From positions 5,834 to 69,833 of the forward strand of contig CAMHUC010000010.1 in NCBI GenBank assembly GCA_946188155.1: a DNA stretch of 64,000 nucleotides, in the 5' to 3' direction. This stretch comes from an uncultured bacterium (GTDB lineage: Bacteria; Bacteroidota; Bacteroidia; Bacteroidales; Bacteroidaceae). The notes under the pieces are model-generated. The model ran no database searches and was not told the origin of the DNA. It worked only from the letters and a program-made list of their open reading frames with translations. This document shows, piece by piece, positions 11,484-50,490 of this stretch; positions within the stretch are counted from its first letter, which is position 1; each line of letters opens with the position of its first letter. Position numbers and translations under genes: made by a program.

Positions 11484-11502
11484 GAGCCGTTATTCTTCAC
11501 TT

Positions 11503-11537
11503 TTCAATTATCAATTGTCAATTGTCAATTATCAATT
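11503..11537. repeat. Heptamer tandem repeat (TCAATT[A/G])n
   Basis: ttcaattatcaattgtcaattgtcaattatcaatt. Confidence 0.8.
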
Positions 11538-12353: not shown

Positions 12354-12992
12354 GTGGACGACAAGCGTTATCTTATGACCCTCATCCGTGAGGGCGAGCA
12401 CCAGCAGCAGGACTTCAAGTATCGGGTGGCCGATGCGGCGAAGCTCGCCAAGTCGGTATCGGCCTTTGCCAATACCGACGGGGGCCGCCTGCTGATAGGC
12501 GTGCGCGACGATGGCCACCTCTCCGGCGTGCGCTCCGAGGAGGAGATCTTCATGATGCACCAGGCGGCCTACAAGTACTGCCGCCCGGAGGCCAGCATCA
12601 AGTTCGACACCTACCACGTGGAGGGCCGCACGATAGTCGTGGCCACCGTGCCGCCATCCGAGCGGAAGCCCGTCTGCGCCATCAGCGACGAGGGCCGCCA
12701 GCGGGCCTATATCCGCATCGCCGACGAGAACATCGTGGCATCACCCGTCCACCTGGCCATCTGGCGCGAGCAGCAGTCGGAGCGCGGCTCCATGATGACC
12801 TATACCGAGGGGGTACGCCGCCTGCTGCAGGCGATGACCACCGCCGAGCCCCAGCAGTTCACCCTCAACCAGGTGGTGCGCCGCTCCCGTCTGCCGCGCC
12901 CAAAGGTCGTCACGCTGCTGGCACGTCTGGTACGCTTCGGTGTCGTCGGCTGGCAGTATCGCGACCAGCAGTTCTTCTTCAGCCTGGCATGA
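12354..12992 (+). CDS. Schlafen/AlbA_2-domain protein with C-terminal wHTH
   Basis: GEHQQQDFK, SAFANTDGGRLLIGVRDDG; start is GTG 12354 or ATG 12375. Confidence 0.85.
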   Translation: MDDKRYLMTLIREGEHQQQDFKYRVADAAKLAKSVSAFANTDGGRLLIGVRDDGHLSGVRSEEEIFMMHQAAYKYCRPEASIKFDTYHVEGRTIVVATVPPSERKPVCAISDEGRQRAYIRIADENIVASPVHLAIWREQQSERGSMMTYTEGVRRLLQAMTTAEPQQFTLNQVVRRSRLPRPKVVTLLARLVRFGVVGWQYRDQQFFFSLA

Positions 12993-13000
12993 GCCACCAT

Positions 13001-13315
13001 CCGCACGCGCACGCGTATAGTAGGGATATGCCGAAAACATGTGTGTCATGTGTACCATCTGACACGCGGGGGTGTCAGATGGTACACATGGCACACTTGT
13101 TTTCCGTAAATGACAACTATAGTGCGAAACGACCCTTTTGGGGAGTCCGAAGGCTACTTCCCGTCGACAGGAGCCTACTTTCGCTCAAGGGAAGGCTACT
13201 TTCCGTCGACAGGAGCCTACTATTTCCAGACAGGAGCCTCCAAATTTTCAAGCGAAGGCTCCTATTTGGCAAGAAGAGCCTCCTATTTCCAGACAGGAGC
13301 CTCCATTCAATAGAT
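13001..13315 (+). repeat. Composite element A: hairpin (13033-13104) plus 8 x 21-nt units (13148-13315)
   Basis: Inverted repeat seen directly; units cgaaggctacttcccgtcgac, aggagcctactttcgctcaag and so on; homologous element at 49969-50343. Confidence 0.8.
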
Positions 13316-14443
13316 CCTATATATCCACATTTCCAAGAATCGGTCGGAAACACTGTAAGCCTTTGTGCGTCCCTCGTTCTGATAGGTCAGAAGTTGTTTC
13401 TCCAGTAAAGTATTGATGGCATGCTGGACGGAACTGGGGGATTTGAGTGCATGCTTTTTCACGAAAGCAACAGAAGTGACACCACAAGCTTTACCTTCTT
13501 TGGCTATGGCTATCAGTGTTTCTTTCTGCTGGTAGTTGAGCTGGTTCATCACCGAGGCAAAGGAGCGGCCCTTCTCTTCCAGAATGTCGCTTAGTGTCTT
13601 GTTTATGTCGGACTCGTCAATAGTCTTGTCGGGATCCAGATATGCAAAAGCGTTGTGGAGAACGTTGTGAACGTAATAGGTATGTCCTTCAAACATGTCG
13701 TAGGCAAGTGACACCGCTTCGGGTGAGATTTTACGTCCTGCTTTTGAAAACTGCTCTTGGGCAAAACTGGTATAGACTTCCTTCGGAATGCAATCAAGAT
13801 ATGTCTGCTCAGCACTATTGTAGAAAGGCTTTGCTGCTGAGCTGAACATATTCTCAAGGATATGACGGTTGCTGCCGGCATAGATGAACAGGCAATTGCT
13901 CATTTTTTGGATATGTGTACGCAGTATTGCCTCTACGTTCTTCTCTGGATAATCGGCAATTTGCTGAAACTCATCGATAGCAAAGATACATGGCTTGTCG
14001 GCCTGCTCCAAGTAACGGAAAATTTCCTCCAGAGTCAGCTCGGGTGTGTGAATATCGCCCAGTTTGACATCGAAAGTGGGGAATCCGGTAATAGGATCGT
14101 ATCCAAAACTGCCTGCCAAGGAATGAATGCCCGCCAAGAATTTATCAATAACGGTCTTTCCTTTGGGTACCAGAACGGTATATATCTCCTTGCTAAGGAA
14201 CAAGACCAACTCGTGCAGACTGGTGGTAGGATATATATCCGTATAGAAGGTATAGTAACTGTTCTTGATAGCGGGTTGCTCATACACGTGGCGAATCAAT
14301 TGCGTCTTACCCATTCTTCGAGGAGAAGTCAACAGGATGTGAGCCTTATTCTCAAGGGTACGAATAAACCACATGGTTTCTTTATCCCTGTCACAGAAAT
14401 AGGGTTCTGGGATGATTCCGGTGATGTAGAAAGGATTCTCCAT
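13307..14443 (-). CDS. Stand-alone P-loop ATPase (archaeal-ATPase/AAA-like) with C-terminal wHTH
   Basis: NPF..G.....YFCDR, SPRRMGKT Walker A, IDEFQQI Walker B; lower GC. Confidence 0.88.
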   Translation of the reverse strand: MENPFYITGIIPEPYFCDRDKETMWFIRTLENKAHILLTSPRRMGKTQLIRHVYEQPAIKNSYYTFYTDIYPTTSLHELVLFLSKEIYTVLVPKGKTVIDKFLAGIHSLAGSFGYDPITGFPTFDVKLGDIHTPELTLEEIFRYLEQADKPCIFAIDEFQQIADYPEKNVEAILRTHIQKMSNCLFIYAGSNRHILENMFSSAAKPFYNSAEQTYLDCIPKEVYTSFAQEQFSKAGRKISPEAVSLAYDMFEGHTYYVHNVLHNAFAYLDPDKTIDESDINKTLSDILEEKGRSFASVMNQLNYQQKETLIAIAKEGKACGVTSVAFVKKHALKSPSSVQHAINTLLEKQLLTYQNEGRTKAYSVSDRFLEMWIYRIY

Positions 14444-14580
14444 AATGCTGCTAATTTGTGCAAAAGTAAGCAAAAAGCAGCAATTATACAAATCCTATAA
14501 TAGAAATTCTATAATCAATTGCTGCTTTTCACTTTTTTTAAGGATAACGCGTTGTGGGCCAAGCCTTTTCAATTCATTTA

Positions 14581-15453
14581 CTATTTACTGCTGCCGACTA
14601 CCTTCGAGATGTCGAGCATCATGCCGTTGCCGCCTACGATCTGGGGCATCTTGCCGTCCCACTTCTCAATCATGTCCTCCTGCACTATCATCGGCGAGAG
14701 CGAGGCGGCTATCGTCTTGTTGTAGTACGCCTCGGCGTCGGCCTTGATGCGCATGGCCTTGGCGGCACCCTCGGCCTTGGCAATCTCAATCTTGGCGTTG
14801 GCCTCGGCCTCCTTCACCTGGTTCTCGGCCTTCAGGGCACTCTGTATGGCCGTGTTCTTGGCGTCGATCATCGCCGTCAGCGAGCTGGGCGGGGTAATCT
14901 TGCTGGTGAACTCCTCGACAATAAAGCCCTCGGCCATGAGCGACTTCTCCAAGCGGGCACGCACGTCGCGCTCGAAGTTGGCGCGGTTCGACATCAGCGA
15001 GTCCGACGTGTACTGGTTGGCGCAGGTGCGGTAGGCCTCGTAGATGCAGGTGCGTATGTAGCCCTCCTCCAGCTCCTTCACGCCGACGCGGTACTTGGTG
15101 AAGATGTCGCAGGCCTTCTCGGGGTTGATGCGGTAAGCTATCGTGGGGTCCATCTCGAAGATGGAGGCGTCCTTGGCGTTCACACTAAACGTCTCGTACT
15201 GCTTGCGCTGGGTGAAGGTGGGGTAGGTGAACACGCTCGTCGTGATGGGGTTGTAGAATACCCAGCCCTTGCAGGTGCCCTCCACGCCGCCATAGTCCTG
15301 CTCGGATGCCGACCACTTGTGGAACTTGATGCCCACCTCGCCGGAGTCGACCACCGTGCAGCAGACGGCGAAGAACAGCAGCACCAGCACGATGCAGCCT
15401 ACGGCATACATCAGGGGGCGACTGAGCTTATTGTCAATAAAGGATTTAGTCAT
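14581..15453 (-). CDS. SPFH/Band 7 (prohibitin) family membrane protein, copy 1
   Basis: N-terminal TM, VDSGEVGI, AE/AK-rich coiled coil, IEKWDGKMP. Confidence 0.9.
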   Translation of the reverse strand: MTKSFIDNKLSRPLMYAVGCIVLVLLFFAVCCTVVDSGEVGIKFHKWSASEQDYGGVEGTCKGWVFYNPITTSVFTYPTFTQRKQYETFSVNAKDASIFEMDPTIAYRINPEKACDIFTKYRVGVKELEEGYIRTCIYEAYRTCANQYTSDSLMSNRANFERDVRARLEKSLMAEGFIVEEFTSKITPPSSLTAMIDAKNTAIQSALKAENQVKEAEANAKIEIAKAEGAAKAMRIKADAEAYYNKTIAASLSPMIVQEDMIEKWDGKMPQIVGGNGMMLDISKVVGSSK

Positions 15454-25620: not shown

Positions 25621-25690
25621 CGCAAAATAATCAGAATTTCCTCGCTTTTCGGTGAAAAGTTTAGAAAAAAGTTTAGCCTGCATTATTCAC

Positions 25691-25755
25691 GCTAACAGAG
25701 GGACGGTTCTTTTGTTATCTCGCTGAGATAACAAAAGAACCGTCCCTCTGTTAGC
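25691..25755. repeat. Perfect 65-bp palindrome (REP-like)
   Basis: 31-bp arms gctaacagagggacggttcttttgttatctc with a 3-nt loop. Confidence 0.9.
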
Positions 25756-25765
25756 ATAGCCTGAC

Positions 25766-33409: not shown

Positions 33410-33545
33410 AGTTTACCGGCACTAAACTCGGACTTTCCCGTAAGCAAACTACCAGTTTCCTTACGGCAAACTCCCACTTTGAAGGCCTGTTTCTCGCCGT
33501 CTGAAGGCTGTTTTTGGCCGTCAAGAAGCTCTTTTTCGGACTCGG
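33410..33545. repeat. Degenerate 21-22-nt period repeats
   Basis: agttt-N9-aaact x3 at 22-nt spacing, then gaaggc/gaagc x3. Confidence 0.5.
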
Positions 33546-49381: not shown

Positions 49382-49951
49382 ATGACTATACAGGAATTCA
49401 GAGACTACATGGCATCGGGCAAGCCCGTCATTGGCGGAGGCGAAGTCCACATGATGTTCCACAAGTTATCGCAGGAGGCACTGAAGATAACGGCAGAGAT
49501 TAATGGTAAGTACCACACTCCCGGCGAGCTGCACGCATTGCTGGAGCAGCTTTGGGGCAGAGAGGTGCCCACGACGGTAGGCATGTTCCCGCCGTTCCAT
49601 ACCGACTGCGGCAAGAACACCGTCGTTGGCGAGCGGGTGTTCATCAACATGGGCTGCAAGTTCCAGGATCAGGGAGGCATCACCATCGACGAGGGCGCAC
49701 TCATCGGCCACAACGTGGTGCTGGCCACCATCAACCACGACCTTGCCCCAGACCGTCGTCAGAGCATGTCGTATGCTCCCATCCACATCGGCAAGAACGT
49801 CTGGATAGGCGCCAATGCCACGGTGCTTGCTGGCGTGACCATCGGCGATGGAGCCGTAGTAGCCGCTGGTGCGGTGGTGACCAAGGATGTGGAGCCGAAC
49901 ACGATTGTCGGCGGTGTTCCTGCAAAAGTTATCAGGAGAATAGAGCAGTAG
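49382..49951 (+). CDS. Hexapeptide-repeat sugar O-acetyltransferase
   Basis: [51 protein letters not shown]. Confidence 0.92.
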
Positions 49952-49968
49952 CTACCAGCCGTCCTTTC

Positions 49969-50343
49969 GGAAGGCTCCGTAGGATCGTAGGAAGGCTCCG
50001 TAGCATCGCAGGAAGGCTCCGTAGCATCGCAGGGAGGCTCCGTAGGATTGCAGGGAGGCTCCGTAGGATTGCAGGAAGGCTCTTTTGCACTGAATTCTCT
50101 AGAGAATTCGCGCTGTGGAGACTGCTGTCAGCTGCCGGGGGCATTGCTCGGAGTGCAGTGGGCTTTGTGTCAGATGTCAGGTGTATGGTTTTCGGCTTTA
50201 TCTCCATCCTCGCGCGCGTATATATATTGCTTTTGACAGAAAACATGTGTACCATCTGTACCATCTGCCACCCCGCCGTGGCAGATGGTACAGATGGTAC
50301 ACGTGTTTTGGCTGATTCACTCCTATACGCGTGCGTGCGCGCG
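49969..50343 (-). repeat. Composite element B: hairpin (50240-50309) plus about 5.5 x 21-nt units (49969-50085)
   Basis: Homologous to 13001-13315 in the opposite orientation. Confidence 0.8.
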
Positions 50344-50490
50344 AAGAACGGTTTGTAGCGCACTTCTGCCCATTCCGTGTGCCGCCTTCTTCCGACTTCG
50401 ACGACTGGCCCTTCCTATGGGGACAGAACGAGGGGACGATAGCCGGCAACACGCAGTACGTCATCTTCGGCTCGTCGTTCAAGAACCTGG

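Follow-up and report, generated by a model that had tools for sequence, protein, structure and literature searches.

Two hairpin-array loci in a Bacteroidales contig are probable gene-less copies of an origin-like module linked to a VapE/Rep-type helicase gene

Two loci in a 64,000-nt stretch of DNA (the window; G000:C10:5834-69833), each combining a long hairpin with an array of 21-nt units, belong to a genuine, lineage-restricted repeat family, best read as orphan origin-like modules associated with VapE/Rep helicases. We consider it probable that loci A and B are gene-less copies of the hairpin and array of a VapE gene on another contig (C4) of the same assembly, that the module is likely an origin-like docking site in double-stranded DNA, and that the copies likely spread non-autonomously, served in trans, although they are accompanied by no transposase or integrase gene. 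This account builds on a sequence family with a single gene-bearing member, on other genomes in which hairpin and gene are paired likewise, and on two empty sites. The source assembly, G000, comprises 3.93 Mb in 144 contigs and is 88.7% complete; G, C, L and X numbers denote genomes, contigs of a genome, loci and sequencing runs, respectively.

An earlier sequence-only reading of the window had described the head, arms, 6-nt loops, number of units and exact 21-nt spacing of both loci (Table 1), all of which we confirmed, along with three paired arm differences between hairpins A and B and the convergent orientation of the genes flanking each locus. The same order of parts that it reported was seen at both loci as well, but this agreement is partly an artefact of locus B having a head-like motif at each end. 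Folding of the arms gave z-scores of -8.7 to -11.1, and none of 200 shuffles was equally stable. The array core of locus A is quasi-palindromic, with the centre AG(G/C)CT. At locus B, the array, the 18-bp palindrome and the long linker resemble the head-side arrays of other copies. The palindrome has 21 matches in the genome and is common to other VapE-linked repeat families; accompanied by flanking cores, it also lies apart from the three families examined, at G000 C8:79742, C9:1165, C19, C22:9327, C35:20830 and C53:11731.

Table 1. Features of loci A and B (window coordinates).
Feature	Position	Strand	Remarks
Locus A	13,001-13,315
Head	13002..13020	+	CG-alternating run and TATAG
Left arm	13034..13065	+	Tandem 9-bp repeats, iteron-like
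Spacer	13066-13071		6 nt
Right arm	13072..13103	+	Inverted
Tail	13110..13122	+
Array	13143..13310	+	8 units of 21 nt, tail-side type; 8 cores from 13151 to 13298, spaced exactly 21 nt
AAA ATPase gene	13307-14491	-
1606-nt block	12986..14591	.	Hairpin, array and AAA ATPase gene; missing in G008 and runs X16 and X18
Locus B	49,969-50,343
Array	49964..50089	-	Homogeneous, mean unit identity 0.80; 6 cores from 49972 to 50077, exactly 21 nt apart
18-bp palindrome	50092..50109	.	CTAG centre; in phase with the array
Second head-like motif	50211..50226	+
Arm	50240..50271	+	9-bp repeats
Spacer	50272-50277		6 nt
Opposite arm	50278..50309	+
Head	50323..50343	-	Head named in the sequence-only reading

The element had been described as present twice. 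An iterated profile search of the genome found 24 hairpins, which represent 23 contexts since C6:21027 and C103:404 have common flanks. Each arm consists of two to three tandem 9-bp repeats and lies between the CG-alternating head and a conserved tail; three minor repeat types also occur in G000, and other genomes hold minor types too. Genome-wide, the core recurs at 21-nt spacing in 38 arrays, against none when it was placed at random 10 times, and the spacing distribution peaks at 21, 42 and 63. A strict 21-nt array lies within about 250 bp of 23 of the 24 hairpins, on either side and never on both, and the remaining hairpin has a degenerate one. With this co-occurrence, hairpin and arrays cannot be called independent, and the earlier suggestion of a phased protein-binding array fits the evidence; helical phasing of array against hairpin was not significant (period 10.5, p about 0.15). 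As for the 15 arrays outside the 23, three adjoin hairpins with the same head and tail and other 9-bp repeats, seven lie inside two further inverted-repeat families, one precedes a long VapE gene, one is at a contig edge, and three look like coding repeats.

Two traits of loci A and B did not extend to the family. The loops vary across it instead of being generally G-rich, and the flanking genes, as called by a crude gene caller, are convergent at seven copies and probably at an eighth, divergent at five and tandem at 11. A terminator role was dropped because flank orientation is mixed. An AAA ATPase gene lies within 700 bp of five of the 24 copies (0.6 expected; 36 AAA ATPase loci); besides the one in the window, these neighbours are on C16, C6, C2 and C13 of G000.

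The window also contains repeats of other kinds. A REP-like palindrome family with 30-bp arms, distinct from the 24 hairpins, is represented at about 25690-25760 (G000:C10:31522-31590) and by 47 other arms. Upstream of the leucyl-tRNA synthetase gene is a short imperfect 21-23-nt repeat that has a similar core and no hairpin (33481-33531), and intergenic 7-nt tandem microsatellites are numerous (11497-11537, 31406, 36668, 38249, 38360, 52746 and 52800).

The one gene-bearing hairpin copy in G000 is C4:7526-7627. There, an M15 peptidase gene is followed by the gene of a 57-aa zinc ribbon, whose 3′ end (last codons) is the head motif, then by the hairpin, and then by a tail motif that runs into the start codon of a 457-aa VapE-family gene (PF05272). 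The VapE gene itself holds the 21-nt array in frame, in a disordered loop. The gene linked to hairpin and array is a VapE/Rep helicase gene, located on another contig than loci A and B. VapE homologues carry a heptad insert at the array position that is variable in length and sequence. We collected 35 VapE loci from genome contigs, of which 22 are short-type with upstream DNA and 11 are long-type; two were omitted from the neighbourhood counts (L047, a fragment, and L020, with no upstream DNA). Short-type neighbourhoods include the zinc ribbon in 21 of 22 and the M15 peptidase in 19 of 22, compared with 0 of 11 long-type loci, and no integrase or transposase common to the cassettes was found within 5 kb of the 22 short-type loci. 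In the short-type loci displayed, the hairpin precedes the VapE start codon, and the 9-bp repeats differ between loci. When 31 hairpins representing several repeat types are compared, both partners vary in 26 of the 27 pairs. The in-frame insert is 21-nt periodic in 22 of 23 short VapE genes, with amino acids varying freely. Its palindromic core was significant in only three of 22 in-frame arrays by a crude test, and we therefore do not claim it as a general feature.

A structural model of the VapE protein (74 sequences; pLDDT 77) matched SaPI1 Rep (7pds) over its full length (E 4.6e-14, TM 0.59), with NrS-1 and D5-type helicases as the next fold matches; an earlier, poorer model (pLDDT 57) had produced no fold match under E 0.001. 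A profile match with an E of 1.6e-6 stands beside the fold match to SaPI1 Rep. For the last 50 residues, two helices and a beta hairpin in a winged-helix layout are predicted. The model predicts the 457-aa VapE to be a ring helicase of the SaPI Rep type whose C-terminal domain is a winged helix. Its Walker A motif has His where Gly is usual, and the short gene does not include the BT4734-like primase part of the long paralogues. The dN/dS of its core ranged from 0.05 to 0.23 in seven pairs (crude method), indicating purifying selection. In L013, L034 and L041, near-identical recognition helices accompany different 9-bp repeats, which makes strict helicase-repeat pairing doubtful. Furthermore, one 9-bp repeat type occurs in three clades, and the repeat types have a few fixed positions in common. 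One degenerate site, with shared descent and homogenisation per genome, explains the match between cassettes and copies equally well.

The cassette of M15 peptidase, zinc ribbon, hairpin and VapE recurs in rumen Prevotella. Searches with the hairpin of each genome's own cassette detected about 22 sites in G414, 16 in G416, 25 in G418, two in G413 and about 11 in G008; the same searches gave few or weak matches in other genomes, and G419, a genome close to both G414 and G418, matches as well. Arrays with the genome's own core adjoined 12 of 13, 13 of 16, five of six and one of one of the copies examined in these genomes. Elsewhere, the hairpin family was found only by a model tolerant of other repeat sequences. 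BLAST with the G000 hairpin retrieved nothing from 30 relatives or from 400 genomes of the genus (best two candidates per genome in the 400), the exact hairpin pattern had no match in viral contigs or genome contigs, and no short VapE relatives were found in viral contigs. With the tolerant model (best 22 candidates scored per genome, each per-genome count being an "at least"), the hairpin was present in all six of the 150 genomes of the genus that have a short VapE at E below 1e-200, and in two of the 144 without one, namely G078 (two sites) and G127 (one weak match). This is a co-occurrence among kin, with four of the six positive genomes having supplied sequences to the model.

Locus L123 (G008:C43) is a cassette with hairpin and array that retains no more than a few VapE codons; this genome has another short VapE at the edge of contig C98, so the remnant does not show VapE loss. 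Beyond an mntP homologue in G140 (L157) lies another element of inverted 9-bp repeats, which combines a head motif with a 21-nt array whose core is of the same type. A literature search outside subscription papers and supplements turned up no account of these repeats, nor of VapE elements bounded by repeats. No Rfam family reached the gathering threshold in the window, and eight other copies had only sub-threshold matches to microRNA hairpins. The label of an unannotated element class is consistent with these searches.

Comparison with other lineages revealed that locus A can be absent. The 1606 nt are missing from runs X16 and X18 and from G008, whose AlbA gene is 92.7% identical; in all three, the AlbA gene is joined directly to a Band 7 gene. 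Locus A had been noted to abut an AlbA-type gene and an ATPase gene; the ATPase gene came or went with the locus, but the AlbA gene is not part of the element, being joined to another gene in the empty allele. A second empty site was found in G114, where the genes flanking C11:821 are about 75 bp apart. Searches at C5:7520 and C20:2632 (two of the four tests) and at locus B encountered no synteny. In DNA runs of the same species (X5, X7 and X8), the sequence passes from AlbA to the hairpin and differs in head and loop, and no empty site within the species was found in DNA runs. Since the empty alleles are from other lineages, they give no direction, gain versus loss. No sharp element ends were found and no target-site duplication was detected, direct repeats in the flanks measuring 4.95 nt compared with 5.21 nt between unrelated copies. 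The two empty sites fit the earlier suggestion of a non-autonomous mobile element.

The sequence-only reading had also offered the hairpin and array as a structured leader RNA plus a mini-array cut into 21-nt guide-like RNAs, an explanation that we now regard as very unlikely. The very stable hairpin, the conserved core with its variable remainder, and the compensatory arm changes speak for it, and the covariation is real: nine of 32 pairs change on both sides, a level that none of 500 shuffles reached. However, the arm mismatches comprise 13 G-U and 13 A-C, which favours DNA symmetry over structure at the RNA level. At one position of the stem, 13 of 23 copies lack pairing; this position and the mismatches would be expected of a pair of degenerate binding sites subject to occasional homogenisation. 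An array may lie to either side of the hairpin and in either orientation, the master array is coding sequence, and the same variable parts turn up at different loci and originate by tandem duplication; run X14 has a 42-nt unit skip in the array. In addition, the cassette contains no Cas-, Nop- or Argonaute-like gene, and RNA contigs (contigs only, low depth) gave no sign of a separate transcript, two of the four RNA runs carrying the empty allele. Two-helical-turn spacing and a division into constant and variable parts are known from plasmid iteron arrays and CRISPR/TIGR-like arrays. In contrast to those, the core here is palindromic, and there are no unique acquired spacers and no linked RNA-guided effector. 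Least probable of all is that the loci encode short heptad-repeat proteins. The two ORFs on which this rests, 12989..13408 and 50363..49932, exist, frames are open in 13 of the 24 copies (2.6 expected from base shuffles), and the RSL frame has one stop in 480 codons. But the unit consensus alone predicts 2.7 stops, the frames are on either strand, 11 of the 24 copies have none, the gene-bearing copy reads another frame, and there is no Pfam match; conservation of the heptad ORFs thus did not hold up.

Long VapE genes have repeat families of their own. At C4:44939-47362 of G000, a long VapE gene is enclosed by inverted 9-bp-repeat ends, with no transposase. Ten short paired copies belong to this family; they have its ends, a related palindrome and an array in which the same core occurs in three units. 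One derivative (C70:1617-1998) is a clean internal deletion that retains the start and stop of the gene, and in another (C6:831-873) the two ends are joined as a hairpin. By the example of these joined ends, the 24-copy hairpin of loci A and B is plausibly the collapsed form of such inverted 9-bp-repeat ends. The flanks of the other four long VapE genes of G000 also have dispersed matches. The complete chromosome of G056 carries five cassettes of zinc ribbon, repeats and long VapE (L118-L122), four of them 92-96% identical and one copy rearranged, in the order M15 peptidase, 357-aa unknown protein, Toprim-DnaB primase-helicase, zinc ribbon, repeats and long VapE. G000 has yet another family of inverted repeats, combining 21-nt arrays with an inner palindrome, at C3:76031, C55, C63, C74, C87, C118 and C71:16563; no parent gene for it was found in this 88.7% complete assembly. 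Taken more broadly, and only as a tentative proposal, rumen Prevotella might harbour mobile elements free of transposase and integrase, in which Rep-type (primase-)helicases copy repeat-bounded DNA from origin-like ends and each gene keeps its own gene-less miniatures, able to carry neighbouring genes; loci A and B would be such miniatures.

The nearest functional parallel is the rep-ori pair of SaPIs, in which iterons of opposed orientation flank an AT-rich centre downstream of rep and are bound by the C-terminal winged helix of Rep, according to the accessible parts of two reports (PMC9371898; bioRxiv 10.64898/2026.10.17.759575). The predicted model of VapE, encoded on C4 outside the window, likewise shares the helicase fold over its full length and the C-terminal winged helix, and opposed tandem iteron-like repeats, at least two per side, lie beside the gene here as well. 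Unlike in the SaPI origin, the repeats are 9 bp long and upstream of the gene, with a mixed spacer of 6 nt (up to about 40 nt) that is not AT-rich. SaPIs and PICIs also differ in that here an extra 21-nt array lies inside the gene, dozens of gene-less copies are chromosomal, no shared integrase lies within 5 kb of the 22 loci, other island genes are missing, and no relative was found in viral contigs. Organisation is closer to that of REPIN-RAYT systems and TIRtrons, which, in the sections of PMC3733652 available, also combine one retained gene flanked by the repeat with genome-specific dispersed hairpins. However, the gene here encodes a helicase instead of a tyrosine (HUH) transposase, the arms are made of 9-bp tandem repeats, and a phased array is present at every copy (compared with the same parts of PMC3733652). 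A dispersed extragenic hairpin family, as in REPs and REPINs, is present, but no cognate RAYT is flanked by the repeat. MITEs are short inverted-repeat elements that lack genes and arise by deletion from a parent element that has one. Gene-less inverted-repeat deletion copies occur here too, most clearly in the C4:44939 family, but the parent encodes a helicase and no transposase, and no sharp termini or target-site duplications were detected. By analogy, the module would work like a SaPI rep-ori pair and be organised like REPIN-RAYT, while the differences set it apart from both classes and from MITEs.

The long VapE paralogues are of the BT4734-like primase-VirE helicase kind (PF08800, PF05272 and DUF3874), a kind treated in part in PMC11724360, whose available text describes priming and microhomology end joining by AgaPP, a PrimPol with a BT4734-like motif, and describes no repeat ends or dispersed copies for such genes. 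The short VapE differs from these in having no primase part. VirE-family ATPases have been predicted to be helicases of mobile elements (PMC5862659, in the part available). Drawing on these parallels, we propose that VapE would use its winged helix to attach to the opposed 9-bp repeats and to load the helicase ring. The palindromic cores, two helical turns apart, would be occupied by a second, dimeric factor, such as the zinc-ribbon or an HU-like protein; the core-plus-palindrome module, which is common to several families, may be the site of some other factor. Local over-replication, for which the host or the long VapE paralogues would supply a primase, could then yield spare copies that would re-enter the chromosome by end joining or recombination, sometimes carrying along a neighbouring gene such as the AAA ATPase gene.

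A different account would have a REP/REPIN- or MITE-type repeat moved by an unlinked transposase, the adjacency to VapE being one old insertion. Long hairpin doublets in intergenic positions, genome-specific families and arms homogenised within copies would suit this account, and G000 possesses a single Y1 transposase gene and classical REP-like palindromes. Yet none of the 24 copies lies beside the Y1 gene (C4:82401), whereas VapE is the gene with a matching hairpin in every displayed short-type locus, the array falls within its coding sequence, families derived from their own flanks accompany five other VapE genes, and no target-site duplication was detected; we consider an unlinked transposase unlikely. 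Also improbable is that the copies no longer move and form a host-adopted network of protein-binding sites for chromosome organisation, replication restart or local amplification, with the single-copy cassette kept for the host. Such a network would accord with a cassette that is single-copy, under purifying selection, without an integrase within 5 kb and with neighbours kept in some clades, as well as with a locus A that is filled in other strains and a core-plus-palindrome module common to several repeat families. On the other side stand its restriction to six of 150 genomes of the genus, a copy number ranging from two to 25, sites that differ between sister species, and the presence of deletion derivatives. 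A host network is compatible, as a later state, with the reading that we prefer, namely non-autonomous copies served in trans by VapE.

VapE/BT4734-like helicase genes are common in Bacteroidales. To our knowledge, they have no accepted role. Our findings connect VapE genes with particular cis-acting DNA as well as with dispersed copy families, and this link makes their function directly testable with a 130-bp substrate, a 457-aa protein and natural variants that have different repeats. Spread that needs no transposase or integrase would be categorically new. If the copies do move by replication alone, this would be a way of spreading within a genome that belongs to none of the transposase, integrase and HUH classes, and it may be a route by which the abundant AAA-ATPase genes change place.
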